A DNA stretch of 53,911 bases, from contig JAGWSB010000004.1 in the NCBI GenBank assembly GCA_028876375.1, forward strand, positions 1-53,911, in the 5' to 3' direction. Origin of the DNA: Chloroflexota bacterium (GTDB taxonomy: Bacteria; Chloroflexota; Limnocylindria; P2-11E). The notes below the pieces were generated by a model. That model was given only the letters and a program-made list of their open reading frames with translations. It did not search any database and was not told the origin of the DNA. How positions within the stretch are numbered: position 1 is the first letter of the stretch; each line of letters opens with the position of its first letter. Shown in pieces: positions 25,649 to 51,029 of the stretch. A program made the translations under genes and the position numbers.

Positions 25649-25849
25649 GCGTCGTCGGTGCGGAGCGATCGGGCCAGCCGCAGAACGTCGCCCTGACGTG
25701 CGACGGACGGTCGCCGATCACGTGTCCGGCGGGCCTAGGACGGGCATGGGCGGCGGCACAGGCTCGTCCTCGATCGCCGGCGGGGAGACCACGAAGGTCA
25801 CGGGGGAGCCGAGCGCTCGCCGTGCCGCCCGCGGCTCGGAGGTGACGAG

Positions 25850-26743
25850 GTGAAGGTGCTGCTCGCGACGGATGGGATGCCGTGCTCCCGGCCGGCCGAG
25901 GACCTCGTCGCGACCATCCTCTGGCCGCGCGGCAGCGCGATCGACGTCATGACGGCCGTGCGTCCCCTCGAGACCCCCGGCGCGATCGCGCCCGCGATGC
26001 GCGGCGCGATGCTGCGCACGTCGAAGCTGCCGGCGGAGGAGCACCTGCGGAAGCTGGCGGAGCGCATCGCGGCGCCCGGGCGTGTCGTGCGCACGGTCGC
26101 CGCGATCGGGCGGCCGGCGACCGCCATCGTCGAGGAGGCCGACCGCCTGCGGTGCGACCTTCTCGTCATGGGCAGCCGCGGACGCGGCACGTTCGCGTCG
26201 TCGCTCCTCGGATCGGTCGCCGCCGAGGTCGCGTTCCACGCCCCGTGTCCGGTGCTCGTCGCGCGCACCGCCCGCTGGGGGCGTGTCCTGTTCGCCGAGG
26301 ACGGATCGGCCGAGGCCAGCGGGGCCGCCGCGCTCCTCGCGACGTGGCCCATCTTCCAGGGACTGACGACGCGCGTCGTCAGCGTGGCGCCCATCGACGG
26401 CGGCCTGTCGGTCCCCGTCCCGGCGGGACCGGTCCGTCACGCGAACGCGAGCGAGCCGTTCGCGACCGCCGTCGACGCGGTGCGGACGGCATGGGCGGAT
26501 CTCGCGCGCGACCGTGCGCTCGAGCTCGAGCGGAGCGGGCTGCACGCGCGCGAGGACCCGCAGGTCGGCGACCCCGCCCGCGAGATCGTGAACGCGGCGG
26601 TGCGCTCGGAGACCGACGTCATCGTCATGGGCTCGCGCGGCAGGACCGGCCTCGAGCGGCTGCTCCTCGGGAGCGTCGCGCGGAACGTCCTCACCCACGC
26701 GCCGTGCTCGGTGCTCGTCGTGCGCCACGGGGTGGTGAGCTGA
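25850..26743 (+). CDS. Tandem-domain universal stress protein
   Basis: KVLLATDG, MGSRGRG, LLGSVA, APCPVLV, GSVARNVLTHAPCSVLVVR. Confidence 0.92.
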   Translation: MKVLLATDGMPCSRPAEDLVATILWPRGSAIDVMTAVRPLETPGAIAPAMRGAMLRTSKLPAEEHLRKLAERIAAPGRVVRTVAAIGRPATAIVEEADRLRCDLLVMGSRGRGTFASSLLGSVAAEVAFHAPCPVLVARTARWGRVLFAEDGSAEASGAAALLATWPIFQGLTTRVVSVAPIDGGLSVPVPAGPVRHANASEPFATAVDAVRTAWADLARDRALELERSGLHAREDPQVGDPAREIVNAAVRSETDVIVMGSRGRTGLERLLLGSVARNVLTHAPCSVLVVRHGVVS

Positions 26744-32057: not shown

Positions 32058-32151
32058 CGACCGGACCGTACGTCGCGCCGCCGCGGCGGACGTTGGCCGA
32101 AGGGCACCTCGCCGCGGATGATCCGGCGCCCCGCCTCGGGCCCATCGGCGG

Positions 32152-34662: not shown

Positions 34663-35594
34663 GCCACCCCGGCCGGCACTCCTTCGCGCCGCGGCCTCGC
34701 TTTCGCGCTCACGCGCTCCGGCGCGCGAGCGACGAGGACCGCGCAGTGCGCGTTCTCCAGCAGCTCGTCGGTCGTGCTCCCCTGGAGGAAGCCCTCGCCG
34801 CGCAGCGAGCGCCCGCGGGCGCCGATCACGACGAGGTCGCTGCCGCTGCCCGCGGCGACCTCGAGGATCCGCTCCGCGGGACGTCCGCGTTCGAGCTCCA
34901 TGCGCACCTGCACTCCCTCCGGGAGCAGCTTCCCCGCGCGCGACAGGATGTCGAGCGCGTCCTCGCGGTCGCAGCGCTCGACCGTCGCCTGCAGCTGCTC
35001 GGCCGACGCGTCGCCGTGCGCCGTGGGCGTCGCGCGCTCCGGAAGGACGTGGAGCAGCGTGACCTCGAGATGCTTGGGAAGGGGGAGCGCCGCGAGCGTG
35101 CGGACCGCGACGTACGCGTCATCGGATCCGTCCGCCGCGACGAGGATGCGGCGCGGCGCCTCGCGGCGCTCGCGAGCGACGAGCACGGGGATCGGTGAAT
35201 GCCGCGACACCGCTCGCGCGGTGCTCCCGAGCACCAGCGCGGCGATCCTCCCCAGCCCGCGCGAGCCCATGACGATCACGCCGGCGCCCTCGGACCGCGC
35301 CACCTCGATGATGGTCTGGGCGACGGAGCCTTCATCGATGCGCGCCTTCGTCGGCACGCCCTTGGCGCCGACCTTCTCGCGGACCGTGCTCGCGAGCCGG
35401 CGCGCGGCCGCGGTCTCCTCCTCCGCGATCTCCGCGAAGTACATGCCCGTGCCGTCGATGCCGACCCCGGTGTAGCTGTGGACCGGCACCGCGAGGACCG
35501 TGACGTGATCGGAAGCGCGCAGCGGGAGCGCGAGGAGCATGTCGAGGGCGACGTCCGCCGTGGCGGACCCGTCGGTCGCGAACAGGATGCGCAT
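34659..35594 (-). CDS. Tandem-domain universal stress protein
   Basis: MRILFATDGS, MGSRGLG, LGSTA, AHCAVLV; SD TAAGGAGG. Confidence 0.92.
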   Translation of the reverse strand: MRILFATDGSATADVALDMLLALPLRASDHVTVLAVPVHSYTGVGIDGTGMYFAEIAEEETAAARRLASTVREKVGAKGVPTKARIDEGSVAQTIIEVARSEGAGVIVMGSRGLGRIAALVLGSTARAVSRHSPIPVLVARERREAPRRILVAADGSDDAYVAVRTLAALPLPKHLEVTLLHVLPERATPTAHGDASAEQLQATVERCDREDALDILSRAGKLLPEGVQVRMELERGRPAERILEVAAGSGSDLVVIGARGRSLRGEGFLQGSTTDELLENAHCAVLVARAPERVSAKARPRREGVPAGVA

Positions 35595-35606
35595 ATCAGG
35601 GCCTCC

Positions 35607-37148: not shown

Positions 37149-38591
37149 GTGATGGAAAGGGAGAGACGGGTGATCCCGCGCCGCATCGAGATCGCGGCGC
37201 TGGTCCTGCCGTCCGCGCTCTTCGCCGGCCTCGCCCTCGTGGACTTCGCCCTCCTCGAGCCCTACCTGCCGCCCGGCATCTCGCACCTCGTGTTCTTCGC
37301 GCTCGGCGTCGCCGGCGTCGCGGCCTTCTCCTACGTCATCTTCGACCGCATCCGTGACCTCCAGATGCGCGAGATCGAGCAGCGGCGTCGGCAGGCGGAG
37401 CTCGCGGACGCGCTCGACCGCCGGGGGCGGCAGCTCCAGGCGCTGAACGAGGCCGGCCTCACCCTGTCCGCCGAGCTCGAGAGCGCGTCGGTGCTGCAGA
37501 AGATCGTCGACCTCGCGCGCGTCGTCGGCGGGTCGAGATACGCGGCGCTCGGCATGTTCAACGAGAACGGCGAGGTCGTGCAGTTCCTCACCTCGGGCAT
37601 CTCCCCGGAGGGGCGCACGAAGATCGGCCCGCTCCCGCGCGGCCGCGGGCTCCTCGGGCTCCTCCAGGACGAGCAGCGCCCCATCCGGCTGCGGTCGATC
37701 GCCGACCATCCGGCGTCGGTCGGGTTCCCTCCGAACCATCCGCCCATGGCGAGCTTCCTCGGTGTGCCCATCCTGTGGCGCGGCCGTTCGGTCGGGAACC
37801 TCTATCTCACGGAGAAGATCGGCGCCGAGGAGTTCTCCAGCGAGGACGAAGAGGCGCTGCTGACGCTGGCCGCCCAGGCGGCGATCGCGATCGAGAACGC
37901 GCGGCTCTACGAGCAGGTCGGACGCATCTCCGTTCTCGAGGAGCGGCAACGCATCGGGATGGATCTCCACGACGGCGCGATGCAGTCGCTGTACGGCGTG
38001 GGCCTCCTCCTCGAGGATGCCGCGGAGCGCACGCCGACGGGCGAGGCGCGCAGCCCCATCGACCGCGCGGTCGAGCTCCTCAACGGCACCATCGCCGACA
38101 TGCGCCGCTACGTGATGGGTCTGCGCCCCATCCGAGGCGCGGAGCGTCCGCTCTCCGAGTCGCTGCCGACGCTCGCCAAGGCGGTCGGCGACCAGGCCCG
38201 GCTCGACGTGCGCGTCGACGTCGACCCCGACGCGGAGCGCGACCTCGACCCCGAGCAGCGCGAGGCGATGTTCTACGTCGCCGCGGACGCGCTCACGAAC
38301 GTCGCGCGCCACGCGCGCGCCACGCGCGCGAACATCCGATTCCTGCGCCGTGACGGATCGGCGGTGCTCGAGGTCCAGGACGACGGCGTCGGGTTCGATC
38401 CGGCCGTCCGCGCGCCCGGACTCGGGCTCCGCAACATGCGCGAGCGGGCGTTCGTCGCGGGCGGGCGCTTCGAGGTGGGATCCGTCCCCGGCACCGGCAC
38501 GACCGTGCGGCTCGAGCTGCCGCTCGAGGGCCCCGAGGCGGCCGTCGGCACGGCCCGGATGCGCACGGGCGAGAATACGAGCGTCAGATGA
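37149..38591 (+). CDS. DosS/DosT-like GAF sensor histidine kinase (HisKA_3), membrane-anchored
   Basis: Two N-terminal TM helices; GAF with HPASVGFPPNHPPMASFLGVP; ERQRIGMDLHD; DDGVGF, GLGLRNMRERA. Confidence 0.9.
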   Translation: MMERERRVIPRRIEIAALVLPSALFAGLALVDFALLEPYLPPGISHLVFFALGVAGVAAFSYVIFDRIRDLQMREIEQRRRQAELADALDRRGRQLQALNEAGLTLSAELESASVLQKIVDLARVVGGSRYAALGMFNENGEVVQFLTSGISPEGRTKIGPLPRGRGLLGLLQDEQRPIRLRSIADHPASVGFPPNHPPMASFLGVPILWRGRSVGNLYLTEKIGAEEFSSEDEEALLTLAAQAAIAIENARLYEQVGRISVLEERQRIGMDLHDGAMQSLYGVGLLLEDAAERTPTGEARSPIDRAVELLNGTIADMRRYVMGLRPIRGAERPLSESLPTLAKAVGDQARLDVRVDVDPDAERDLDPEQREAMFYVAADALTNVARHARATRANIRFLRRDGSAVLEVQDDGVGFDPAVRAPGLGLRNMRERAFVAGGRFEVGSVPGTGTTVRLELPLEGPEAAVGTARMRTGENTSVR

Positions 38592-39238
38592 GCGAGGAGA
38601 AGCCGATCCGGGTCCTGGTCGTCGACGACCACGAGGTCGTGCGCGAAGGTCTGCGCACGCTCATCGGCAAGCAGAAGGGCATGACCATCGTCGGCGAGGC
38701 CGCCTCGGCGAAGGAAGCGATCGAGACCGCGGCGCGCGCCCGTCCCGACGTCATCGTCATGGACGTCCGGCTCCCCGACGGCAGCGGCATCGAGGCCTGC
38801 CGCGCGATCCGCGAGGCGCGCCCGGGGACCGGCGTGATCATGCTCACCTCGTACGCCGACGACGATGCGCTCTTCGCCGCGATCCTCGCGGGCGCCGCCG
38901 GCTACCTGCTCAAGGACGCGAAGGGGAACACGGTCGTCGAGGCGATCACCGCGGTCGCCGAGGGCCGCTCGCTCCTCGACCCGACCGTCACCGGCAAGGT
39001 CCTCGAGCGCGTGCGCAAGGGCCCCGAGGAGGACCCCGGCCTCGCGTCGCTCACCGACCAGGAGCGCAAGGTGCTCGAGCACGTCGCCGAGGGGAAGACC
39101 AACCGCGAGATCGGCGAGATCATGTTCCTGTCTGAAAAGACCGTGAAGAACTACGTCAGCCGCATCTTGGACAAGCTCGGCCTCGCGCGCCGGGCCGAGG
39201 CGGCGGCGTACATGGCGAAGCGCCGGCCCAAGTACTAG
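38588..39238 (+). CDS. DosR/DevR-like NarL-family response regulator
   Basis: VDDHEVVREG, MDVRLPDGSGIE, LTDQER, FLSEKTVKNYVSRIL. Confidence 0.92.
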   Translation: MSEEKPIRVLVVDDHEVVREGLRTLIGKQKGMTIVGEAASAKEAIETAARARPDVIVMDVRLPDGSGIEACRAIREARPGTGVIMLTSYADDDALFAAILAGAAGYLLKDAKGNTVVEAITAVAEGRSLLDPTVTGKVLERVRKGPEEDPGLASLTDQERKVLEHVAEGKTNREIGEIMFLSEKTVKNYVSRILDKLGLARRAEAAAYMAKRRPKY

Positions 39239-39367: not shown

Positions 39368-40066
39368 ATGCAGACGGCAACAACGCAATCACCTGTCCAG
39401 TCAACGTCGACCTCTGAGGTCAAGCGGCCCGTGCGCATCCTCCTCTGCGACGACCACGAGGTCGTGCGCGAGGGGCTGCGGACCCTCTTGGCCGGCCGGT
39501 CGGACATGCGTGTGGTCGCCGAGGCGGGCACCGCGGCGGACGCCATCGAGGCGGCCGCGCGAGAGACGCCGGACGTCGTGATCATGGACGTCCGCCTCCC
39601 CGACGGGAGCGGGGTCGAGGCCTGCCGCGCCATCCGTGAGATCCTTCCGGCGACGCGCGTGATCATGCTCACGTCGTACCCCGACGACGAGGCGCTCTAC
39701 GCCTCGATCGTGGCCGGCGCCTCCGGCTACCTCCTCAAGCAGACGCGCGCACGCGCGCTCGTCGAGGCCATCGAGACCGTGTCGCGGGGCCGCGCCCTGC
39801 TCGATCCGGACGTCACCGCGCGCGTCCTCGAGCGCGTCCGCAAGGGCCGCGCCGACGAGGACCCCGCGCTGGGGGCGCTGACCGACCAGGAGCGCCGCGT
39901 GCTCGAGCAGCTCGCCACCGGCAAGACGAACCGCGAGATCGGCGAGGCGCTGTTCCTCTCCGAGAAGACGGTGAAGAACTACGTCAGCCGGATCCTCGAG
40001 AAGCTCGGCCTGCACCGCCGCGCCGAGGCCGCCGCGTTCGCCGCGCGCCGAGGGATGAGCTCCTAG
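39368..40066 (+). CDS. Second DosR/DevR-like response regulator
   Basis: Close paralog of 38588..39238 with the same recognition helix FLSEKTVKNYVSRIL. Confidence 0.92.
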   Translation: MQTATTQSPVQSTSTSEVKRPVRILLCDDHEVVREGLRTLLAGRSDMRVVAEAGTAADAIEAAARETPDVVIMDVRLPDGSGVEACRAIREILPATRVIMLTSYPDDEALYASIVAGASGYLLKQTRARALVEAIETVSRGRALLDPDVTARVLERVRKGRADEDPALGALTDQERRVLEQLATGKTNREIGEALFLSEKTVKNYVSRILEKLGLHRRAEAAAFAARRGMSS

Positions 40067-40365: not shown

Positions 40366-41157
40366 ATGGCGGATCAGGCGAAGTCCACCGGACCACGCGA
40401 AGCATCCCGTCGTCGTCTACTGAGTGCCTTTGTAGCCGGTGGGGTGGGTCTTGCGGCTGTCCCGCTGGTGCCGATCGCCTTCCCGCAAGCGGAAGCCGCG
40501 ACGCCTCCGAAGAAGAAGCGGCAGTGGGCGATGGTCATCGACCTTCGCCGCTGCGACGGCTGCAAGAAGTGCACCGAGGCGTGCCAGACCACGCACGATC
40601 TGCCTCAGACCTTCGAGTGGATCAAGGTCTTCGAGGTCCAGGACAAGCAGGGCGGCTCGTACTTCATGCCGCGTCCGTGCATGCACTGCGAGAACGCGCC
40701 GTGCCTCCGCGTCTGCCCCGTCGCCGCGACTTTCAAGACGGACGAGGGCGTCATCCTCGTCGACCAGAGCCGCTGCATCGGCTGCCGCATGTGCATGGCG
40801 GCATGCCCCTACGGCGCGCGCTACTTCAACTTCGCTGACCCGCCGAAGCCCCCGAGCCCGTTCGCGCAGCCGACGCCCGAGCATCCCGTCCCGCAGATCA
40901 AGGGCACCGTCGGCAAGTGCATGCTGTGCGTCCACAACACCGTCGACGGCAAGCTCCCCGCGTGCGTCAGCGCGTGCGGGATGCAGGCGCTGTGGATCGG
41001 CGACCTCGTCGAGGACGTCGCGACGAACGGGACCGACACCGTCCGCTTGTCGTCGCTCCTCAAGGACAACGACGCCTTCCGCTACAAGGAAGAGCTCGGC
41101 ACGAGCCCGCGCGTCTATTACATCGCCGGCCACGGCCAGGCGCTGCAGGGCGCGTGA
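40366..41157 (+). CDS. Tat-exported 4x[4Fe-4S] electron transfer subunit (NrfC/DsrO/QrcC-like)
   Basis: SRRRLL Tat signal; CDGCKKCTEAC, CMHCENAPCLRVCP, CIGCRMCMAACP, KCMLC...PACVSAC. Confidence 0.92.
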   Translation: MADQAKSTGPREASRRRLLSAFVAGGVGLAAVPLVPIAFPQAEAATPPKKKRQWAMVIDLRRCDGCKKCTEACQTTHDLPQTFEWIKVFEVQDKQGGSYFMPRPCMHCENAPCLRVCPVAATFKTDEGVILVDQSRCIGCRMCMAACPYGARYFNFADPPKPPSPFAQPTPEHPVPQIKGTVGKCMLCVHNTVDGKLPACVSACGMQALWIGDLVEDVATNGTDTVRLSSLLKDNDAFRYKEELGTSPRVYYIAGHGQALQGA

Positions 41158-42524
41158 TGGATCGACGGACGCGCGGCCTCTACATCGAGCGCGCCGTTTG
41201 GCCCATCGGCCGCGGCGACCGCAACTTCTGGATCGCCGTCGCCGTGCTCGGCGCTGTCGTCGCCGCGGGCGTCTACGCCTGGATCTACCAAGTCCAGCGC
41301 GGGCTGTGGGTGACCGGCCTCAACCAGAAGGTCTCGTGGGGCTTCTACATCATCAACTGCGTCTTCTTCATCGGCATCAGCTACGGCGGCGCGATGACGA
41401 GCGCGATCCTCCGGCTGACGAACGCCAAGTGGCGCGCCCCGCTCACGAGGATCGCGGAGGCGACGGCGGTCGCGGCTCTCCTGGTCGGGGCGGTCTACCC
41501 GATCGTCGACCTCGGCCGCCCCGACCGCTTCGTCAACATCATCCGCTACGCCCAGATCGGATCCCCGATCGTGTGGGACGTCACCGCGATCACGACGTAC
41601 ATGATCGCCAGCTTCGTATTTCTCTACCTGCCGCTCATCCCCGACCTGGCCGTCGCGCGTGAGGCGCTCAGCCTGTCGCACCGCCGGGAAGCGAAGCTCC
41701 TCGCGCCCGTCTACCGCTTCCTCTCCCTCGGCTGGCGCGGGCGCCCCGCGCAGGAGCGTGCGCTCGCACGCGGGGTCGGGATCATGGCCGTGCTCATCAT
41801 CCCGCTCGCGGTCTCCGTGCACTCCGTGCTCGCGTGGCTCTTCGCCGTGACCGTCCGCGCCGAGTGGCACAGCACGATCTTCGCGCCGCTCTTCGTCCTC
41901 GGGGCGATGTTCTCGGGGGTCGCGGCCGTGATCGTCGTCATCGCGGCCTTCCGCAAGGTCTACGGCCTGCAGCGGTTCATCGAGGCGAAGCACTTCCGGT
42001 ACCTGTCGTATCTGCTCATCGCCCTCGGCGCCGCCTACATCTACTTCATGGTCAGCGAGTACATCACCGACGGGTACGTCTTCGAGGAGTCGACGACGCC
42101 GGTCATGGAAGCGCTCTTCACCGGCCCGTTCGCCATCGCGTTCTGGGCCTTCAGCATCGGCGGGCTGCTGCTCCCCATCGTCATCGCCGCTCTGCCGGGC
42201 CGCTTCCCGATCGCCCGCGCCGTCGGAGCGTCGGGCCTGGTCATCGCCGGGATGTGGCTGAAGCGCTTCCTCATCGTCGTGCCCGGCATGGCCGAGCCGA
42301 TCATGCCGTGGGACTGGGGCCGCTACTCACCCTCGTGGGTGGAGGTCACGATCACGCTCGGATCGGCGGCGGCGATCCCGCTCATGCTCATCCTCTTCTT
42401 CCGCTTCTTCCCGGTCATGTCGGTCCACGAGCTCGACGAGGTCGAGGGCCGCTACGAGCCGGCGCACGCGCCCCTCGCTCCCGGATACGCACCGCTGTAC
42501 GCGGGTGGAGGCGGAGATGACTAG
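41157..42524 (+). CDS. NrfD/PsrC-family quinol-interacting membrane subunit (DsrP/QrcD/ActC-like)
   Basis: WGFYIINCVFFIGIS, RIAEA, DLGRPDR, SPIVWD, SVHSV, W.STIFAP.F, YSPSWVE. Confidence 0.92.
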   Translation: MDRRTRGLYIERAVWPIGRGDRNFWIAVAVLGAVVAAGVYAWIYQVQRGLWVTGLNQKVSWGFYIINCVFFIGISYGGAMTSAILRLTNAKWRAPLTRIAEATAVAALLVGAVYPIVDLGRPDRFVNIIRYAQIGSPIVWDVTAITTYMIASFVFLYLPLIPDLAVAREALSLSHRREAKLLAPVYRFLSLGWRGRPAQERALARGVGIMAVLIIPLAVSVHSVLAWLFAVTVRAEWHSTIFAPLFVLGAMFSGVAAVIVVIAAFRKVYGLQRFIEAKHFRYLSYLLIALGAAYIYFMVSEYITDGYVFEESTTPVMEALFTGPFAIAFWAFSIGGLLLPIVIAALPGRFPIARAVGASGLVIAGMWLKRFLIVVPGMAEPIMPWDWGRYSPSWVEVTITLGSAAAIPLMLILFFRFFPVMSVHELDEVEGRYEPAHAPLAPGYAPLYAGGGGDD

Positions 42525-43203
42525 GGGCCTGCGCGTCCTCATCGCGGTACTCGCCCTCGTGGCCGCGACGGTGGTCCTCCAGCTCGACCTCCGGGGGCTG
42601 CTCCCAGGGCAAGTGCGCCTCGAGGCACCCAACACCATGCTCATGTCACCGCCGTCGAGCGGTCAGGGCGCGCCCGGTGGCGTGAGCGCTCAGCGTCCGG
42701 CCGCCGCGGCGGCGCCGAACGCCGCGCGCGTGCAGCTCCGGACGAGCGCGGCGGCCAGCGCGCCCGACGGGTACGTGCTGGCGGCGAGCGTCGCTACACC
42801 GGACGGGCGCCCCGCCGCGGGAGCGACCGTGACCTTCTACGAGGTGGTCGACCTCCTCGGCTCCCGCGAGATGCTCATCGACTCGGCGACGAGCGATGGA
42901 CGAGGGAACGCGTCCGTGGTGTACCTCCCCGCGCGCGCCGGCAGCCACGAGATCGTCGCGCGCTCGACCGGGATCGCCAAGGCGGCGTCGGGCGAGGCCC
43001 GTTCGACCCTCGAGGCGACCGTCACCGCCAAGGCGTATGCGCCAGAGACGCCCTCGATCTCGGCGTTCTACAACGCGGTGCCCTACGGGGTCGGTCTGGT
43101 CGTCCTCGCGGTCTGGCTCCTCATCGCGTTCGCGCTCCTCGGCACGGCTCGCGGCGTCGTTCGCGGCGCACGCAGAGAAGAAGAGAAGGGGGTCATCGCA
43201 TGA
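42517..43203 (+). CDS. Hypothetical membrane-anchored Ig-like domain protein
   Basis: N- and C-terminal TM helices flanking a beta-rich domain (SDGRGNASV, GSHEIVAR). Confidence 0.75.
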   Translation: MTRGLRVLIAVLALVAATVVLQLDLRGLLPGQVRLEAPNTMLMSPPSSGQGAPGGVSAQRPAAAAAPNAARVQLRTSAAASAPDGYVLAASVATPDGRPAAGATVTFYEVVDLLGSREMLIDSATSDGRGNASVVYLPARAGSHEIVARSTGIAKAASGEARSTLEATVTAKAYAPETPSISAFYNAVPYGVGLVVLAVWLLIAFALLGTARGVVRGARREEEKGVIA

Positions 43204-43820
43204 CCAAGCTGGTCCTCCGCGTCCTCGCGTCCGGCGTCGCGCTCGTCCTGGTCGCGGCGTCCTGCGGTGCATCGACCGGCGAAGGCGCACCCGCGGCACC
43301 CGCGGCGAGCGCAGCCCCGGCGACGCAGGCGCAGGCTGCGACCGCCGCGGCACCCGCCCAGCCCCAGTTCCTCGTCGTGATGGGCGACACGATCCGCGGG
43401 AACCTCGGCCTCAACAAGACCGAGATACTCACGACCGCACCCGGCATCCACTGCACCCAGCAGAACCGCTTCCCGCAGGGGGGCCGCATCGTCTGGCGAA
43501 TGAAGGTCATGGACCCTGCGACGGGCAAGTACATGGACAACAAGCAGATCGCGTCGTTCACGATCACCTACCCCGACGGTAAGACCGACAAGCTCGCGTA
43601 CGGCGGACACGGCGGGACCAAGGAGAAGCCGGCCGACATGCTCTGGGCCGTTGGCTACACGGTCCCGAACGACTACCCGACCGGGCTCTTCCCGGTGAAG
43701 ATCGTCGCGACGGATCTCGAGGGACGCACCGGCACCTTCGACCAGTTCAAGGTCGACATCGCGCAGCTCACGATCGTCCCGAAGGGCATGGACTACCCCG
43801 AGAGCCACGAAGCGAAGTAG
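43200..43820 (+). CDS. Hypothetical lipoprotein, beta-sandwich
   Basis: Lipobox VAASC, Ala/Pro linker, HCTQQNRF..IVWRMKV..YGGH..DYPTG; ATGA coupling. Confidence 0.82.
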   Translation: MTKLVLRVLASGVALVLVAASCGASTGEGAPAAPAASAAPATQAQAATAAAPAQPQFLVVMGDTIRGNLGLNKTEILTTAPGIHCTQQNRFPQGGRIVWRMKVMDPATGKYMDNKQIASFTITYPDGKTDKLAYGGHGGTKEKPADMLWAVGYTVPNDYPTGLFPVKIVATDLEGRTGTFDQFKVDIAQLTIVPKGMDYPESHEAK

Positions 43821-43845
43821 GCGAGCGGCCACGCGTTGAGGAGCA

Positions 43846-43879
43846 GGGGGCGTCGTGGTCAGGGGACCGCGACGCCCCC
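43846..43879 (+). terminator. Strong intergenic hairpin (terminator or mRNA stabiliser)
   Basis: 15-bp stem gggggcgtcgtggtc/gaccgcgacgccccc with a 4-nt loop; no U-tract. Confidence 0.5.
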
Positions 43880-43898
43880 ATGCGAAAGGAATGCATCG

Positions 43899-45404
43899 AT
43901 GCGACTGACAAGGATCCTTGCGCTCAACGCGCTCGTCGGAGCGGCGCTGGTGGGCGCGGCCTGCGGCCAGTCCGGACCGAGCGCCTCGCGGTCACCCGCG
44001 ACGGCGCAGCCGTCCAAGGCCGCCGGCCCGGCGACGGCGGCGCCCGGCGCCGCGGCGTCCCAGCAGGCCATGGACGTCACCGGCAAGTTCACGCTCCAGC
44101 CCGCGCACGGCCCGTGGGACACCAAGGTGACCGCGACCGCCGTGGGGCTCAAGCCGGCGACCGCGTACGACCTCGTGTGGACCGGCGCCAAGGTGCAGTG
44201 GAAGCTCTCGGATGACCGGAGCAAGTACCTCGGACGCGACTACACGACGACGAAGCAGGTGCTGCGGACGATCACGACCGATGCGGCCGGCTCCTTCGTC
44301 GCCACGTTCCCCGTCCCGCAGGGCTTCGGCTATGGGCACGACGTCCAGGTGGTCGACAAGGAGAACGTGATCCGGAACAAGAGCCTCTTCGACGTCGACA
44401 TGGTGACGACCATCACTCCGACCAGCGGACCGGTCGGCACGCCGATCACCGTCGAGGTCAAGGGCATCGGCTACCAGTCGTACCAGAACAGCTTCCAGCT
44501 CGACTACGACAACGCGTACACGGGATGGATCTCGTCCGTCACGACGGACGGCTACGCGAAGCTCGTCATCCCCGCGACCGGCGGGGTGGGCGCGCACTAC
44601 ATCACGATCGGGCACAGCGAGTTCGGCGCGCCGTATCTCAACCCGCAGCAGCAGCCCGTCGTCGCGTCGCGCCCCTTCCCGCACATCGCGTTCACCATCA
44701 CTCCCGGCGACGGCGTCGTCCCGCCTCCGGCGGCGCAGCAGGGCTTGCCGCAGATGGCCGCGAGGCCGGTGGACAAGGGCATCTGGACGTCACCCGCGGG
44801 CGCGACGGTCGGCACGCCCGCGACGCTCGAGGCGAAGGCGCTGCCCGCCGGCAGCGACGTGGAGATCCTCTGGACGACGCAGGTCGGGAACCGCTCGGTG
44901 ACGGGATTCGAGGAGCGCACGAGCACGCTCGGCAAGACGCGCACCGACGCGAACGGCGCCTTCAGCTGGTCCTTCGCGGTCCCCGACGACCTCGGCGGGT
45001 ACCACACCGTCAGCGCGAAGATCGGCGATGCCGTCGTCGCGAAGACGCAGCTCTACATCCTCGCGAGCGCACTTCCGCTCAACGTCGACCGCGGTCCATC
45101 AGGCACGACGACGACGGTGCATCTCAAGGGTGTCGGCTGGACGGAGACCGAGCAGATCTACCACCTCGTGTACGACAACGCGTTCGCGGGATACACCTGC
45201 GCGTTCCAGAGCAAGGGCGACATCACGGTGAACCTCACCGTGTCCGGCGCTCCGGGGTGGCACTTCATCGACATGTACCCGGGGATCTTCCAGGGCACCG
45301 AGACGCGGCCCGCCAACTACAAGATGCCGCAGCTCACCGCGCTCGACGACCACCCCGGTGAGAAGCTTCCGGTCTTCCGCTTCGCCTTCTTCGTGACGCA
45401 ATGA
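43899..45404 (+). CDS. Hypothetical lipoprotein with four Ig-like modules (ABAB internal repeat)
   Basis: Lipobox VGAAC; repeated GPxxT module starts, TDAxGxF...H and YDNA.....G.H segments. Confidence 0.85.
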   Translation: MRLTRILALNALVGAALVGAACGQSGPSASRSPATAQPSKAAGPATAAPGAAASQQAMDVTGKFTLQPAHGPWDTKVTATAVGLKPATAYDLVWTGAKVQWKLSDDRSKYLGRDYTTTKQVLRTITTDAAGSFVATFPVPQGFGYGHDVQVVDKENVIRNKSLFDVDMVTTITPTSGPVGTPITVEVKGIGYQSYQNSFQLDYDNAYTGWISSVTTDGYAKLVIPATGGVGAHYITIGHSEFGAPYLNPQQQPVVASRPFPHIAFTITPGDGVVPPPAAQQGLPQMAARPVDKGIWTSPAGATVGTPATLEAKALPAGSDVEILWTTQVGNRSVTGFEERTSTLGKTRTDANGAFSWSFAVPDDLGGYHTVSAKIGDAVVAKTQLYILASALPLNVDRGPSGTTTTVHLKGVGWTETEQIYHLVYDNAFAGYTCAFQSKGDITVNLTVSGAPGWHFIDMYPGIFQGTETRPANYKMPQLTALDDHPGEKLPVFRFAFFVTQ

Positions 45405-45410
45405 AAAGGA

Positions 45411-45445
45411 GCCGGTCCGCGCTCGAGCGAGGGGCGCGGATCGGC
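45411..45445 (+). terminator. Hairpin after the operon end
   Basis: gccggtccgcgc/gcgcggatcggc stem just after the stop codon. Confidence 0.4.
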
Positions 45446-45576
45446 ACCACCCTTTCGCGTGGGACCGCTCCGCCGATGTGCCCGATCGCAGGGGCCGTAT
45501 GCAGGATGCCCTCGGGCCTGATAGCGCTACCGAGCACGCCGACCGCCGCGTACCGTCGGTCGCCGGAGGAATAGAG

Positions 45577-46221
45577 GTGGCAGTACACGTTCCGGCGCTT
45601 CCGCGTCCCGACGTCTGGCACCGGCGCTTCGGCCCGACGCTGGCGCTCCTCCTCGTGCTCGTTCCCTTCGCCGCCATCCTCACGGTGGCCGCGCTCTCGG
45701 CGGCGCCCGCGGACGAGACCGACGTCGCGGTCACCCTCAACGACACCGCCGCGCTCGTCGACTCCCATGCCGAGGCGATGCTCACCGTGGGGCAGCGCAT
45801 CACCGCCGCGGCGCAGGCGTCGAGCGCTTCCGACCGCCTCTCGTGGATCGCCTACGGGCAGCACATGGTCTCGGACGGCAAGGACCTGCAGGGCCTGGCT
45901 TCGCGCATGCGAGACGACGCCGTCGTCGCCGCGGAGGACCCGCTGCACAGCGGACGCAACGTCGCCGTCAGCGCGCTGCAAGCGCGCTGGGAGCAGCTGA
46001 AGGCCGACGGCCAGACGACGGCGACGCACGGTCGCGTCATGCAATCGATCACTCAGGACATGGCGCCCGCCATCTCGAGCGGCATCGTCAGCGCCGCGGA
46101 CGCGAAGAAGCTCCAGGACGCATCGACCGGGATGGTCGACGCGGGCGAGCGCATCGTGAGCGCGGCGAACGTCCTCCTCGCGTCGACGGATCAGATGCAG
46201 CGCTGGATGGGCAACCCCTAG
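45577..46221 (+). CDS. Hypothetical membrane-anchored helical protein with His/Met motifs
   Basis: SD GGAGG, N-terminal TM, all-alpha character, SHAEAM / GQHM / THGRVM. Confidence 0.75.
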   Translation: MAVHVPALPRPDVWHRRFGPTLALLLVLVPFAAILTVAALSAAPADETDVAVTLNDTAALVDSHAEAMLTVGQRITAAAQASSASDRLSWIAYGQHMVSDGKDLQGLASRMRDDAVVAAEDPLHSGRNVAVSALQARWEQLKADGQTTATHGRVMQSITQDMAPAISSGIVSAADAKKLQDASTGMVDAGERIVSAANVLLASTDQMQRWMGNP

Positions 46222-46352
46222 AGCATCCCCAGCGCCGCGGCATCACTCCGCGAACGAGCTGACGAGGCGTTTGCCTCGCCCGGCCGACCGACGGCGGGCC
46301 CGGCGTGTCCCGCCACGTCCCGAACGTAGGAGGGCAGCCCGCGGCGCCACAG

Positions 46353-46405
46353 AGCCCGAACGACCCCGGGTAGGGGGCGGGACGGCCCTGGGGGACCGAC
46401 GATCC
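46353..46405. promoter_or_regulatory. Three DosR-box-like sites upstream of the PCYCGC gene
   Basis: agcccgaacgaccc, gggcgggacggccc, gggaccgacgatcc. Confidence 0.5.
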
Positions 46406-46424
46406 GAGCGCGGACTATCCGCCC

Positions 46425-46892
46425 GTGCGCCGCCGCGCTTTCCTCTTCCTCGGGGCGAGCTCCCTCTCCACGGCCTGCATCCGCGCGTTGCGCACCCCCA
46501 CCGCATGGCAGTCGCAGTCGGCGCCGCCGGCGTCGAAGATGGCCGCCAACCCCAGCGCCGGGATGTGGCCGGACGCGCTGGGGGCGACGCCGGCGGCGAC
46601 GCAGGAGGCGTACAAGTGGGCCGCCGTGAACCGGGCCACTCTCCGCTACATCCCCTGCTACTGCGGCTGCGCGGGTATCGGCCACAAGGACAACTTCGAC
46701 TGCTACGTCAGCGAGATCCGCGACGGCGGCTGGCTGGTGCTCTCCGACCACGCCCTGGGCTGACGCACATGCGTGGACATCACGCGTGACGTGATGACGA
46801 GCCTCCCGACGCAGAGCCTCAAGGACATCCGAGCCGCCATCGATGCCAAGTACTCCGGCGTCGGGCGCGGGACGCCCACCATCCTCCCTTAG
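46425..46892 (+). CDS. PCYCGC-motif lipoprotein, predicted selenoprotein (UGA 46761-46763 = Sec, UxxC)
   Basis: RRR..STAC signal, YIPCYCGC...H..N.DCY. After TGA the frame continues RTCVDI...SLKDIRAAIDAKY..TP, matching the family C-terminus. Confidence 0.85.
46778..46796 (+). promoter_or_regulatory. Candidate bacterial SECIS hairpin
   Basis: catcacg-cgtga-cgtgatg stem-loop beginning 15 nt after the UGA, with G/GU in the apical loop. Confidence 0.6.
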
Positions 46893-46911
46893 GAAGGCGC
46901 TCACTAAAGGT

Positions 46912-46961
46912 GTCCCAAAAGGTCCGGGCCGGAAGGCCCATAGGGTTGCGCCGTAGGTCCC
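46912..46961. promoter_or_regulatory. DosR-box-like sites upstream of the regulator-bcr operon
   Basis: gtcccaaaaggtcc, gggccggaaggccc (46926-46939), gcgccgtaggtccc. Confidence 0.6.
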
Positions 46962-46999
46962 TGTTCGCCGCCAAGCGGCGCCGACACTGTTCGGACAAG

Positions 47000-48073
47000 A
47001 TGGCCGCGCAGCACGACGGTGGACCGGTCCTGGTCGCTGAGGACGATCTCGAGCTCCTCGGCAAGCTCCGCGAGGCGCTACGCGCCGAAGACCTTCTCGT
47101 CGTCGCCTCCCGCAGCGTGCGCGCCGCGGTCGAGGCCGGCGCGTTCCACCGCCCCGCCGTCGTCGTCGTCGACCTCGGCATGGACGGCGGCCGCGGCTGG
47201 GAGCTGCTCCACGCCATGGGCAGCCGCCCCGGCACCGCGGTGCTCGCGCTCGACCGGCGCGGCGACCAGCTGGTGCGGCGTGGCGCGTTCTCCGCGGGTG
47301 CCGCCGACGTCGCCGGGCCACCGCTCGATGCGGCCGAGATCGCGGCGCGCGCGCGGTCGCTGTACCGCCGCGAACGCGGCGACGGCGACCCGGGTCCGGT
47401 GCTCCGACACCGCGACCTCGTGCTCGACGTTCCGCTCCACGAGGTGCGCGTCGGCGGTCGGCCGACCACGCTCACGCCGCAGCAGTTCGCCATCCTCCGC
47501 GCGCTCCTCGAGGCCCGCGGGGCAACGCTGCACCGCTCCCAGCTGCTCGCGCGCATCGCGGCCGTCGACGACGAGCCGCCCTCGGAGCGCGCGGTCGACC
47601 TCCACGTCTCGCGTCTGCGCCGCCGCCTCGGAGTGGGCAAGGACCACCACCGCTACATCGAGGCGGTGTACGGCATCGGCTACCGCTTGGCCGCGACGGA
47701 TGCGCCTGCCGCGCTCCCGTCCGACGTCGCGAACAGCGTTCTCGACGCGGTGACCGAAGGCGTCCTGGTGGTCGATCCGAGCATGCGCATCCGGGCCGCC
47801 AATCGCGCCGCGATGCGCACGCTCGAGCGCGAGGATCTGGTCGGCAGGCCGTGCGAAGAGGTCATGGGCTGCCGCACGCCGGAGGGGAACACGATCACCG
47901 GTCCGACGTGTCTCGGACGCGCCGTCCTCGCCGGAGGCGGAGCGATCCCGCGCGTGCCGATGTGCGTGCGATCGAACGGCTCCTTCATCGACGTCGACCT
48001 CTCGCACACCGCCGTGCACGTCGACGGCGGCAACACCCTGTTGGCCATCGAGGTCCGGCACAAGCCCGACTGA
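47000..48073 (+). CDS. Hybrid regulator: atypical receiver + OmpR-type winged HTH + Cys-rich PAS
   Basis: VLVAEDD...VVDLGM; ERAVDLHVSRLRRRL, YGIGYRL; LDAVTEGVLVVD..ANRAA..GRPCEEVMGC. Confidence 0.85.
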   Translation: MAAQHDGGPVLVAEDDLELLGKLREALRAEDLLVVASRSVRAAVEAGAFHRPAVVVVDLGMDGGRGWELLHAMGSRPGTAVLALDRRGDQLVRRGAFSAGAADVAGPPLDAAEIAARARSLYRRERGDGDPGPVLRHRDLVLDVPLHEVRVGGRPTTLTPQQFAILRALLEARGATLHRSQLLARIAAVDDEPPSERAVDLHVSRLRRRLGVGKDHHRYIEAVYGIGYRLAATDAPAALPSDVANSVLDAVTEGVLVVDPSMRIRAANRAAMRTLEREDLVGRPCEEVMGCRTPEGNTITGPTCLGRAVLAGGGAIPRVPMCVRSNGSFIDVDLSHTAVHVDGGNTLLAIEVRHKPD

Positions 48074-48109
48074 CATCGAACGGACGATCTTCGTCCGTAC
48101 GGTGCGCGC

Positions 48110-48544
48110 ATGGCCGCATCCGGTACCCAGCTCCGACCGAGATCGCTGACCGTCGCTGACGCGGAAGCACTGGCCGCGCTTTCGCTGAAGCTGGGCGGAA
48201 GCGAGACGGTCGCGCAGTGGGTGGCCTTCTTCGGGCGTCCCCACGCCATCGCCGTCGGGTCGATCGCCGACGGCCACATCGTCGGGTACGCCGCCGGAGA
48301 GGTCCGCACCGGGTTCGGCCTGCCGAAGCCGGTCGCCTGGGTCGAGGCGTTCGGGATCGATCTCGAATACCGCGGCGCAGGTCTGGGCCGCACCCTCCTC
48401 GGCGAGCTCCTCCGTCGAGCCGCCACGCTCGGTGCGGCCCACATCTACACGCTCGTGCCCGTGCACGACCGCGTTCTCGCGCCCTTCTTCCGGCAGCTCG
48501 GCTTCCGCGACGAACCGCTCAGTTGTTTGGGGTGTTCGCTATGA
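48110..48544 (+). CDS. GNAT acetyltransferase (BadL-like)
   Basis: VGYAAGEVR, YRGAGLGRTLL acetyl-CoA loop, FFRQLGF; coupled to bcrC. Confidence 0.8.
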   Translation: MAASGTQLRPRSLTVADAEALAALSLKLGGSETVAQWVAFFGRPHAIAVGSIADGHIVGYAAGEVRTGFGLPKPVAWVEAFGIDLEYRGAGLGRTLLGELLRRAATLGAAHIYTLVPVHDRVLAPFFRQLGFRDEPLSCLGCSL

Positions 48545-49701
48545 CGATGACCTTCGAGAGCTACCGCGACGTCATCGAGGATCGTGAGTACCCGACCGTG
48601 CGCGAGTGGCGCGATCGGACCGGCGGCAAGGTGATCGGGTGCTTCCCCGTGTACGCGCCCGTCGAGGTGCCGTACAGCCTGGGGATGCTCCCGATCGGCC
48701 TCTTCGGCGGCGGCAACCGCGTGGAGATCGCCAACGCCGACTCACGGTTCCAGTCGTTCATCTGCTCGATCGTGAAGAGCACGCTCGAGCTCGGCTTCAT
48801 CGGCAAGCTCGACGTCCTCGACGGCCTGATGTTCCACTCCATCTGCGACCCGGCCCGGAACCTGGCGAGCGTGATGGGGCGGAACTTCCCGCAGCGGCCG
48901 GCGGTGTTCGTCCACCTGCCGCAGAACTTCCAGTCCCCCTTGGCCGCGCAGTACATGGCGACCGAGCTGCGGCGCGCCGCGGACGAGCTCGGCGCGATCG
49001 CCGGCCGCAAGGCCCGCGACGAGGACCTCGCCGCGGCGATCGTGGCGTACGACAAGGTGCGCGAGCTCCAGCGGCGCCTCTACGCTCTCCGCAGCTCCTC
49101 GCCGGAGCGCATCTCGACGAGCGAGCTGTACACGCTCTCGCGCCTCGCGACCCTCATGGATCCCAAGGACGTCGCCCCCATCCTCGAGGCGGCGCTCGCC
49201 GGCGCGATCAAGAGGACGGAGCGCCCCAAGGACCGCATCCGCGTCGTCCTCGCCGGATCCTTCTGCGAGCAGCCACCGCTCGAGCTCATCGAGAGCCTCG
49301 AGCAGGCCGGCTGCTACATCGTCGACGACGACTTCCTGCTCGGTTGGCGCACGCAGCGTCACCCGATCGAGGTGAACGGCGATCCTTTCCTCGCGCTCGG
49401 GAACGCGTACGTGAACGATTCACACCACCTGAGCCCCAAGCACGACCTGCGCAAGCCGCGAGCGGCGGGGCTCATCGAGAGCGCCAAGGCGAACCGCGCG
49501 GACGCGGTCATCTTCCTCGGCGCGAAGTTCTGCGAGCCCGGCCTGTTCGACTACGCGCTCTATCGGAAGGCACTCGAGACGAGCTCGATCCCGCATCTCA
49601 TGCTCGAGTTCGAAGAGAAGATGTGGCTGTACGACCGCATCCGCAGCGAGGTCGAGACGTTCGTCGAGTCGATGCTGTTTGCGGAGGCGAAAGCGTCATG
49701 A
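48541..49701 (+). CDS. bcrC: Class I benzoyl-CoA reductase subunit C (HgdB family)
   Basis: [52 protein letters not shown]. Confidence 0.85.
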
Positions 49702-51029
49702 CGCCAGCAACGACCGCGACACCGACGAAGAAGCCCGCGGCGGACGCCAAGCCCGCCGCGCCGGCGATCAAGTACCAGGGCACCGTCCACGAGCTGCAGA
49801 AGCAGCTCATGAGCAAGTACTACGCGGACCTCACGAGCATCGCCGAGGGCGGCCCCGGGCGGAGCGCGCAGCTCCTCATCGCGGGCAACCCGGTCGAGGT
49901 CCTCCGCACGTTCGACATGATCCCCGTGTTCCCCGAGATCAACGCGCTCCAGCTCGCCGTGCGCAAGAACTCGCTCCCGCTCATCCAGAAGGCCGAGGAG
50001 CTCGGGTACTCCACCGACAACTGCGCCTACGTGAAGGCCGACATCGGCATGTGGGAGAACGGCGGCAAGACGCCGTTCGCCACCATCCCCAAGCCCGACG
50101 TCCTCGTCTGCAACTACGTCGGGTGCAACGTCTACCTCAACTGGTTCGAGCATCTCGCCGAGAAGGTCGGGTCGCCGGCCATCAACATCGACATCCCGTT
50201 CATGCGGACGAAGGACGGCCAGCCCGCGGAGGGCGACGTAGAGTACGTCGTCGCGCAGCTCAAGGAGCTCGTGAAGCTCCTCGAGAAGGTCACCGGGATG
50301 CCGTTCGACGAGGACAAGTTCGTCAAGATCGTGGAGCGCTCCTCGCGCGTCGGCCAGCTGTGGTCGCAGATCCGCGACCTCACGAAGAAGCGCCCGACGC
50401 CGTACGACGCGTACTTCGACTCGGTCACGATGATGGCGCCGCTCTACTGCCTCCGCGGCACGGAGGAGGCCGTCGACTTCTTCGAGCGGACGCTCGAGGA
50501 GATGACGGCGAAGGTCGAGCGCGGCGAAGGCGCGCTCCCCGACGGGGAGAAGTTCCGCATCGTCATCGAGGGCCCGCCGCCGTGGCCCTTCCTGCGCGTC
50601 TTCCGCGACATGTTCAGCCGCTGGGGCGCGGTCGCGGTCGCCTCGACGTACGCGACGGTCGGCGGCATCTGGGAGTTCGGGTTCCATCACGACCCCGCGC
50701 ACCCGTTCGAGAGCGTGGCCAAGCACATGATCGAGGCCAACCTCTGCAACCGCTCGATGCTCCAGCGGTACGACCAGATCTGGCGGTACGCGCAGGAGTG
50801 GAGCGCCGACGCGCTCGTCATCCACTCCGTCAAGAGCTGCCGCCTCTTCTCCGCGGGGCAGGGCGACATGCGCGAGCACTTCGTGCACGACCGCGACCTG
50901 CCGACGCTGCTCATCGAGTCGGACCTCGAGGACCCGCGCTACTTCTCGCAGGCGCAGCTGCGCAACCGCATCGACGCGTTCTTCGAGGCGCTGGAGCAGA
51001 GGCGCATCACCGGAGGGAAAGCGGCATGA
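49698..51029 (+). CDS. bcrB: Class I benzoyl-CoA reductase subunit B (HgdA family)
   Basis: [55 protein letters not shown]. Confidence 0.87.

Follow-up and report, generated by a model that had tools for sequence, protein, structure and literature searches.

A putative quinone-linked NrfC-NrfD operon of a Limnocylindria bacterium and its candidate redox partners, a widespread protein pair without a known family

To our knowledge, proteins of the NrfC and NrfD type are the standard wiring between periplasmic redox enzymes and the quinone pool, and in every well-studied case the partner carries haem, molybdenum or nickel-iron. In the Nrf systems, NrfCD or NrfH are alternative quinol dehydrogenases for one periplasmic enzyme, and alternative complex III (ACIII) reduces auracyanin or cytochrome c. 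Here, we describe a five-gene operon from a Chloroflexota bacterium (GenBank assembly GCA_028876375.1; class Limnocylindria) that encodes an NrfC/NrfD module together with a protein pair, p4 and p5, which belongs to no family, lacks a solved relative and shows no known cofactor motif, and which has hundreds of relatives in public data. The operon lies at positions 40366-45404 of contig JAGWSB010000004.1 (C107), of which positions 1 to 53,911 of the forward strand were analysed (hereafter the window). The source is a metagenome-assembled genome (MAG) of 2.6 Mb in 134 contigs, 89.8% complete and with a G+C content of about 68-74%, and the nearest protein and locus relatives of the window are labelled Candidatus Limnocylindria or Chloroflexota. 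The operon points to an undescribed respiratory-type enzyme, and we judge the chances to be even that it encodes a quinol-linked module for electron transfer, which feeds a new pair of extracytoplasmic redox proteins. Literature searches gave no description of a module of this composition; supplementary tables may list orphan NrfCD modules.

All five genes are encoded on the plus strand. The first, p1 (40366..41157), encodes a protein of the NrfC/PsrB/DsrO type with a twin-arginine translocation (Tat) signal and four predicted [4Fe-4S] clusters, and p2 (41157..42524) an NrfD-family integral membrane subunit of the quinone/quinol-interacting kind with about ten transmembrane (TM) segments. These are followed by p3 (42517..43203), a bitopic protein with an N-terminal TM segment, an extracytoplasmic immunoglobulin (Ig)-like domain and a C-terminal TM segment, by p4 (43200..43820), a 206-amino-acid (aa) lipoprotein with a single beta-sandwich, and by p5 (43899..45404), a 501-aa lipoprotein with four beta-sandwich domains of the Ig or macroglobulin (MG) type. 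A model working from the letters alone had named these five genes and had called the first four translationally coupled (the original prediction). All five open reading frames (ORFs) were recovered, with corrected start codons, and p1 to p4 do overlap: by 1 nt at the p1/p2 junction (TGATG, with ATG 41157 as the most likely start of p2), by 8 nt between the p2 stop and p3 (most likely start ATG 42517) and by 4 nt at the p3/p4 junction (ATGA, which puts the p4 start at 43200). The most likely start of p5 is ATG 43899, 78 nt past p4 and with AAGGA ahead of it; the resulting 501 aa equal the length of an identical database protein.

The first two proteins are readily classified. In p1, 16 Cys residues form four ferredoxin-type groups, of which three were found by pattern and the fourth, CMHCENAPCLRVCP, was read from the translation, and a twin-arginine stretch (SRRRLLS) stands ahead of a hydrophobic segment at residues 21-39, so that p1 has both the four Cys groups and the Tat signal of NrfC/PsrB-type polyferredoxins. 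It matches Pfam Fer4_11 (65 bits) and further Fer4 models; among the NCBIfam models it passes DsrO marginally (207.3 bits, cut-off 200), with TtrB second-best (150, cut-off 416) and QrcC (141, cut-off 400) and NrfC (132.7, cut-off 377.6) both far below their cut-offs. p2 is a member of the NrfD family (PF03916, 130.5 bits against a cut-off of 25.8), and its hydropathy profile agrees with about ten membrane spans; its best named NCBIfam match is DsrP, at 119.7 bits against a cut-off of 350, and QrcD reaches 55 against 570.

The third protein, p3, has hydrophobic segments at residues 11-29 and 195-213 and only sub-threshold Ig-like matches in Pfam (CarboxypepD_reg, 23.4 bits; Big_1, 22 bits), and its role is better read from its gene context. 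In a paralogous operon on contig C57 of the same MAG, and on one contig of another genome of the same genus (fetched as both L028 and L050), NrfD and p3 form a single uninterrupted ORF of 692-693 aa, in which Pfam detects the NrfD domain. In 34 loci, a p3-type Ig gene also comes next after NrfD, at a further 35 places in all, a count that includes several contigs fetched twice. Because p3 is fused to NrfD in the paralogue and is present as well in operons with cytochromes or cupredoxins (see below), its context identifies it as a probable third subunit of the NrfCD core and not as a client. NrfC, NrfD and p3 are a core module with alternative partners.

The copy on C57 (15000-20159, minus strand; L127) comprises all five genes, with identities of 71, 60, 48, 43 and 50% for p1 to p5 (tblastn) and the NrfD-p3 fusion as a 692-aa ORF. 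In the loci of relatives, p1 to p5 are all present and in order in eight of the ten examined; L027 has NrfC, NrfD and a 34%-identical p5, and L030 has p5 fragments only. With a second copy in the MAG and the order kept in eight of ten related loci, the five-gene arrangement is, as judged from these sequences, beyond chance, and several Chloroflexota families show the same order. In a set of 41 close genomes, p5 was detected in family f1 (11 of 24 by tally) and in none of the 16 genomes searched that belong to other families of the class; two of the 12 genomes with matches (G001 and G003, E ~5e-4), both still part of the tally, align with p5 only in the signal and linker region, residues 18-85, and do not count as carriers. 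In an even sample of the phylum, 105 of 301 Chloroflexota genomes have NrfD relatives at E<=1e-40, and the 14 closest loci were compared. Four have NrfC-NrfD followed by p4 and p5 (p5 identity 32-35%), with a p3-like match between NrfD and p4 in three and none detected in the fourth (L113). Another three have NrfC, NrfD, a p3-like gene and cytochrome c, one of them (L120) also with a cupredoxin-like match. Three more are partial, with a contig end or a different order, and in the remaining four none of p3, p4 and p5 was detected. The expectation of the original prediction that the lipoproteins accompany nrfCD elsewhere is thus borne out within the Chloroflexota, by the C57 copy, the related loci and these distant ones.

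What takes the place of p4-p5 in the sister operons bears on their function. A third NrfC/NrfD pair of the MAG (52 and 42% identity, tblastn) is part of a Pfam-verified operon of six tightly coupled genes on contig C28 (~43590-48480, minus strand; L126:591-5475), whose five junctions include four overlaps, of which three measure 4 nt. Its genes encode, in order, a sulfocyanin/cupredoxin lipoprotein, NrfC, NrfD, a bitopic protein that passes the cut-offs of two Ig-like models (Big_3_5 at 41.6 bits and Big_1 at 40.3 bits), a membrane-bound monohaem cytochrome c and a di-cupredoxin. As the sister operons have cytochrome c at this position, two of them with cupredoxins as well, p4-p5 holds the operon slot of classical electron carriers; both operon types, with p4-p5 and with cytochrome, occur together in the genome G064 as they do in the MAG of the window. 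The gene content of the C28-type operon suggests a candidate minimal quinol:cytochrome c/cupredoxin oxidoreductase, undescribed in Chloroflexota, which, if true, would provide abundant soil bacteria with a minimal functional analogue of complex III.

The p4-p5 pair is itself widespread. Relatives at E<=1e-30 fall into 226 representative clusters, with labels that include Chloroflexota, Alphaproteobacteria, Burkholderiales, Gemmatimonas, Acidimicrobiaceae and Deinococcus. A scan of one genome per species with a p5 pattern gave 196 confirmed loci, of which the best 80 were analysed with ORFs called by scripts that filter on G+C content at third codon positions (GC3). Directly upstream of p5 lies p4 in 66 of the 72 loci with at least 700 nt of upstream sequence. 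Neighbours were counted in the 58 species-representative loci with at least 4 kb upstream, counts that overstate independence because the genomes of the relatives are kin. NrfC and NrfD are upstream of the pair in 19 of them, by title mostly Limnocylindria or Chloroflexota, with one Acidimicrobiaceae and one Saccharimonadales (probably mis-binned). In seven others, all alphaproteobacterial MAGs, a NapC/NirT gene (PF03264, 219.9 bits, four CxxCH motifs) is directly upstream on the same strand and ends about 50-250 nt before p4. The core module and the wide occurrence of the pair, in part behind NapC/NirT, are both additions to the original prediction. That two unrelated quinol dehydrogenases converge on p4-p5 gives concrete grounds, open to experiment, for suspecting an undescribed reaction, respiratory or detoxifying, in widespread soil bacteria.

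Single loci add further associations. In an Acidimicrobiaceae locus (L069), NrfC and NrfD are followed by a 588-aa ORF, in which a membrane anchor is combined with cytochrome c and EB_dh domains (the latter 47.8 bits), and then by p4 and p5. A second p4 copy lies beside a monohaem cytochrome c in L072, and a lipoprotein encoded in L061 has a CxxCH in its C-terminal part and matches nothing in Pfam. A cultured strain, Deinococcus sp. D7000, has the pair on plasmid p_2 (CP058536.1:101931-103913; L125; p5 identity 37%), annotated as 'hypothetical proteins' and with no quinol dehydrogenase nearby. p5 genes that are 74-75% (L043 and L046) or 46% (L054) identical are labelled Saccharimonadales, Acidiferrales and Firmicutes, labels that are probably binning errors and not the true hosts.

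Searches for the identity of p4 and p5 returned generic folds at most. For p4 there is no Pfam family at E<=0.1 and no NCBIfam family, and for p5 nothing above the Pfam threshold, with a sub-threshold TIG match only. AlphaFold2 models, confident outside the signal and linker regions, show a beta-sandwich for p4 (predicted local distance difference test, pLDDT, 79.7) and four beta-sandwich domains for p5 (pLDDT 88.2, predicted TM-score 0.83), the four sandwiches forming an internal repeat that arose from duplication of a two-domain unit. When these models were compared with the PDB by Foldseek, p4 gave only generic Ig-like matches (best E 2.4e-4, TM-score <=0.40), and the best matches of p5 were the MG arrays of alpha-2-macroglobulin and C3 (query TM-score <=0.19), with no cofactor-binding fold among them. 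Profile searches of the PDB with the p4 and p5 alignments gave nothing below E 0.08, and the nearest ESM Atlas clusters of both are named 'hypothetical protein'. Two candidate identities were rejected: FixH/YtkA as a relative of p4, as the ESM Atlas row (0.81) is at chance level, and cupredoxin for either protein, as neither has a Pfam match whereas the cupredoxins of the C28 operon match SoxE and Copper-bind. Of the cupredoxin-type ligand residues, C85 and H137 are the only invariant ones in p4, and no Met is invariant. Alignment of p4 with p5 by hhalign is confined to the signal and linker regions. Relatives of p5 with longer sequences contain no telling domain (one sub-threshold Cu_amine_oxidN1, 22.4 against 24.2), and no longer relatives of p4 were found, which is weak evidence.

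Both proteins are nevertheless highly conserved. In p4, C85, H137, W149, P160 and G162 are identical in all 49 sequences. In p5, more than 100 positions are conserved at >=93% in 74 sequences, including H147, H233, H239, H369, H455, H485, C434, several Asp, Arg and Lys and six Trp; H233, H369, H455 and C434 are identical in all 74, and H147 and H485 in 73. Each of the two proteins thus has one invariant Cys outside the lipobox. A lipobox is recognised as a signal peptide that ends in Cys, and both window proteins have such a predicted Cys after a hydrophobic segment (p4, ...LVAAS-C; p5, ...LVGAA-C), as expected of lipoproteins. The lipobox Cys is present in just 14 of 49 p4 and 28 of 74 p5 sequences, and the proteobacterial homologues examined have an N-terminal hydrophobic leader without it, a distribution that would be expected if the proteins are lipid-anchored in monoderms and free in the periplasm of diderms. 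The operon slot shared with cytochrome c and cupredoxins, the capture of the pair by NapC/NirT and this enzyme-like conservation make p4-p5 the most likely redox client of the core module.

Whether p4 and p5 form a complex was addressed by structure prediction. ESMFold2 runs with p5(55-501) and p4(52-206), based on alignments built for this analysis, gave a median ipSAE of 0.56, with 0.00 for the best of three controls; the runs have at least 46% of contacts in common, and the partner pLDDT is at least 72. In the calibration of this method, 58 of 80 solved complexes passed, as did 2 of 110 mismatched pairs; the passes at ipSAE <=0.60 comprised only seven of the 80 solved complexes and both of the mismatches, so that passes in this range are more often wrong than right unless binding is likely beforehand. 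For p4-p5 it is likely beforehand because their adjacency is conserved, and the predictions lend weak support to binding of p4 to p5.

If the NrfC/NrfD module had a conventional catalytic partner, its gene might lie elsewhere. The original prediction had noted that the operon lacks a molybdopterin, hydrogenase or CxxCH subunit and had called for a search for orphan Mo or cytochrome subunits. The absence was confirmed, with no CxxCH in the translations of p1 to p5 and no molybdopterin match (PF00384) on the window contig, and no orphan catalytic subunit came to light. Both molybdopterin matches of the MAG are on contig C37, each beside its own FeS and NrfD genes, and NiFe-hydrogenase has 0 matches in the whole MAG. 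A distant cognate catalytic subunit is not in evidence in this incomplete MAG. Contigs C86 and C37 overlap, since one NrfD sequence is encoded both at the end of C86 and at the start of C37, and the six NrfD matches of the MAG represent five loci; the joined region (C86:15557-17615 and C37:1-4577) encodes NrfC, NrfD and a 1211-aa ORF that matches the molybdopterin model weakly (41.5 bits). Further along C37 (22296-27983), genes for an FeS protein and an NrfD-family protein come after a molybdopterin ORF with one in-frame TGA; the TGA may possibly encode selenocysteine in a formate-dehydrogenase-like ORF, and the layout resembles the FqoABC layout named in PMC8076601. The term 'cytochrome-c-free', which the original prediction had applied to the system, is right for the window operon and not for the MAG, since c-type cytochrome candidates are present elsewhere (one ORF with eight CxxCH each on C6 and C24), and there are further cupredoxin-like matches on C11 and C89.

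At the outer surface of the cytoplasmic membrane, the operon would provide modular electron transfer linked to the quinone pool. Electrons would be exchanged with menaquinol/menaquinone by NrfD (p2), the Tat-exported NrfC (p1) would relay them through its four [4Fe-4S] clusters, and p3 would be a structural third subunit of the membrane core. A heteromer of p4 and p5, presumably in contact with NrfC, would be the electron acceptor (or donor, should electrons flow the other way) of the core, and would act as a new terminal oxidoreductase on some substrate or as a new carrier. The likeliest ligands of a putative metal or non-covalent haem cofactor, or redox-active thiols, would be C85 and H137 of p4 and C434 and five or six His of p5, and it is these invariant Cys and His residues that possibly bind metal. 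A more specific version, which we put forward tentatively and as rather doubtful, is that p4-p5 is a new family of extracytoplasmic oxidoreductases, or a carrier built of Ig sandwiches only, with a Cys/His redox centre that is possibly at the p4-p5 interface. The pair would be fed by a three-subunit NrfC-NrfD-Ig quinol dehydrogenase in monoderm Chloroflexota and by NapC/NirT in Alphaproteobacteria, and the same core with cytochrome c and cupredoxins would be the minimal functional analogue of complex III.

A number of observations weigh against a redox role of the pair. Neither protein has a recognised cofactor motif, be it CxxCH, an Fe-S pattern or the cupredoxin ligand set, and the search for fusions of either to a redox domain gave none. 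Four His of p5, those at GxH positions, sit at equivalent places of the internal repeat and could be structural. The complex prediction is weak and silent on NrfC, and the NapC genes of the seven alphaproteobacterial loci are similar in sequence and may go back to one evolutionary event. Moreover, neither NrfCD nor NapC is beside p4-p5 in 32 of the 58 loci, so the pair can function without an adjoining gene for a dedicated quinol dehydrogenase; most proteobacterial p4-p5 loci are of this kind, and clustering of the neighbouring ORFs gave no other conserved partner in them. Such stand-alone pairs are compatible with general periplasmic carriers and equally with a non-redox protein pair. The claim of the original prediction that the lipoproteins are the missing catalytic or electron-carrier partners stands in part: it is favoured for p4-p5 by the NapC adjacency and the carrier slot and tempered by the autonomy of the pair in these 32 loci, and p3 belongs with the core and not with the clients.

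An alternative is an explanation in terms of non-redox envelope proteins, in which p4-p5 (perhaps also p3) are merely co-transcribed with NrfCD as a scaffold, a binding or protective pair, or an accessory of the two-component sensor, and the real partners of NrfCD are encoded elsewhere, for example the multihaem cytochrome candidates of C6 and C24 or cupredoxins, with cupredoxin-like matches on C11 and C89. All three proteins are plain Ig-like sandwiches, p4-p5 stands alone in the majority of loci just mentioned, and in five Chloroflexota loci (L053, L056, L061, L063 and L066) the pair follows a kinase and/or regulator without NrfCD. We nevertheless regard this explanation as unlikely, if a serious contender, since it leaves unexplained the translational coupling of p1 to p4, an order kept in two paralogues (43-71% identity) and in Chloroflexota families as distant as those with 32-35% p5 identity, the independent placement of an unrelated NapC/NirT quinol dehydrogenase directly upstream of the pair, the bona fide electron carriers in the same slot of the sister operons, and a conservation of p5 far above that of a typical scaffold. 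The same residues could instead serve in extracytoplasmic metal or oxyanion handling (reduction or sequestration of copper, chromate or similar), with p4-p5 binding the ion through His, Cys and Asp together with conserved Arg and Lys and NrfCD or NapC supplying electrons for detoxification and not for energy conservation. The invariant His-Asp pairs, Cys and Arg/Lys of p5 would suit such a role, as would several neighbours: a PCYCGC-domain protein (46425..46763, plus strand; Pfam PCYCGC, 54 bits), which in four other loci, as here, adjoins the module, a P-type cation ATPase gene (32152-35118) about 5 kb upstream, and, with identities assigned by eye, a ChrA-like permease next to p5 in five of the 80 loci and, within about 6 kb in some Limnocylindria loci, cupredoxin-like and multicopper-oxidase-like ORFs (four loci each) and, in L034, a NirK-like ORF. 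Near-identical DNA is also present in metagenome runs labelled mine drainage or soil, from two studies, which contain 0.84-0.95 of the sampled words of 40366-45404, and no RNA run was listed as containing this stretch; as one of the runs may come from the source sample, the habitat labels are no independent evidence. None of the neighbours is conserved across the family and no known metal-binding family matches p4 or p5, which makes this role improbable in our view, and it overlaps with the proposed redox client since it too involves a quinol-fed extracytoplasmic redox pair.

A sulfur or thiol system akin to DsrOP has also to be considered. SoxYZ is a two-protein Ig-like carrier with one active Cys, and His/Cys-ligated haems are known from DsrJ, SoxAX and TsdA. 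By analogy, Cys85 of p4 and Cys434 of p5, in each case the only invariant Cys outside the lipobox, would carry or exchange a persulfide or disulfide, with electrons passing through NrfCD. The score of p1 above the DsrO cut-off and DsrP as the best named match of p2 agree with this idea; the DsrP score itself is far under its cut-off, genes for DsrM, DsrK and DsrJ are missing from the operon, no sulfur-metabolism gene is among the conserved neighbours, and the carriers in the sister operons, cytochrome c and cupredoxin, are of the aerobic type. We hold it to be very improbable.

Upstream of the module, the window encodes a two-component system on the plus strand. It consists of a membrane sensor histidine kinase (37149..38591; GAF_2 61.5, HisKA_3 44.9 and HATPase_c 41.7 bits) with two or three N-terminal hydrophobic segments and one GAF domain, and of two paralogous NarL/LuxR-class response regulators (38588..39238; Response_reg 101 and GerE 68 bits; and 39368..40066; Response_reg 95.5 and GerE 70.2 bits). 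The best NCBIfam match of the kinase is MctS (117 bits against a cut-off of 700), and those of the regulators are MadR and NarL, also below their cut-offs. The second regulator is conserved at 91-96% in three related loci (L023, L026 and L029), and orthologues of the kinase and regulators lie upstream of the module in many relatives and of some cytochrome-type sister operons. From this gene order, the GAF kinase and the two NarL-class regulators probably control the operon. The original prediction had proposed induction at low O2; by analogy with hypoxia sensors of the DevS/DosT-DevR type, the GAF/NarL-class architecture and neighbouring genes for universal stress proteins may hint in this direction, though neither the kinase nor the regulators reach a named NCBIfam family. 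The latter are two tandem-domain genes (25739-26743 and 34659-35606) upstream of the two-component system, as is a gene for a LonB/LonC-like protease (29628-32171). For an ORF at about 36.1-36.7 kb, an assignment as DoxX was dropped, as no Pfam family matched. The C57 copy has no adjoining two-component system, and an AhpD/CMD-like ORF (by eye) lies upstream of it.

Downstream of p5, two variable accessory genes precede a different set of functions. The first, p6 (45478..46221, plus strand), encodes a membrane-anchored protein with one hydrophobic segment and no Pfam or NCBIfam family, and a homologue adjoins the module in L022 and L023 only (L035 and L042 are the same two contigs). The second is the PCYCGC-domain protein, whose further occurrences near the module are in L024, L034, L040 and L044, of which L024 and L044 are the same contig. 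Directly after it, at 46910-48073, an OmpR-type regulator (receiver and Trans_reg_C) with a C-terminal PAS domain represents an unusual fusion. Two HGD-D family genes of the 2-hydroxyacyl-CoA dehydratase/benzoyl-CoA reductase type (about 220 bits each) at 48541-51029 and beyond, with a further ORF that is activator ATPase-like by eye, suggest an anaerobic radical dehydratase or reductase system. In other genomes, L034 (9648-13001) has the module, a PCYCGC protein, an NnrS-like polytopic protein and the NirK-like ORF, the latter two identified by eye. A link to denitrification, which this ORF had suggested, was discarded, as tblastn gave no NirK in the MAG of the window. The ChrA-like permease stands directly beside p5 in L047, L060, L065, L070 and L081, and p4 was not detected in four of these five.

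Among described complexes, DsrMKJOP is closest by name, as it has a Tat-type periplasmic 4x[4Fe-4S] protein and an NrfD-family subunit, and DsrO and DsrP are the best named matches of p1 and p2. The partners in the window are different, being p3, p4 and p5 without CxxCH in place of DsrM, DsrK and the trihaem DsrJ, and with the DsrP cut-off failed and the DsrMKJ genes absent the module is no Dsr complex. The molybdoenzymes PsrABC, TtrABC and Phs share the FeS subunit and the NrfD-type anchor, and TtrB is the runner-up for p1, but no molybdopterin subunit is present in the window operon or left unassigned in the MAG. The comparison with the Nrf systems concerns their logic, since the p4-p5 client is served by an NrfCD-type dehydrogenase in some lineages and by a NapC/NirT/NrfH-type one elsewhere; NrfABCD itself differs in its multihaem NrfA and pentahaem NrfB, for which there is no gene here, in an NrfC model whose cut-off p1 does not reach, and in a client that here is an Ig-like pair without cofactor motif. 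In the proteobacterial relatives, the three-gene NapC-p4-p5 unit of seven loci has the usual layout of a NapC-family protein (NapC, NirT, CymA) and its redox client, while the window has no homologue of it. ACIII (ActABCDEF) and Qrc, finally, likewise combine an NrfD-type subunit, an FeS protein and small subunits with one or two membrane spans to feed periplasmic carriers. Unlike them, the window operon lacks the pentahaem ActA, the molybdopterin-like ActB1 domain and a second NrfD-like subunit, and its proteins are far under the QrcC and QrcD cut-offs, whereas the sister operon on C28, with its cytochrome c and cupredoxins, resembles a minimal quinol:carrier oxidoreductase.

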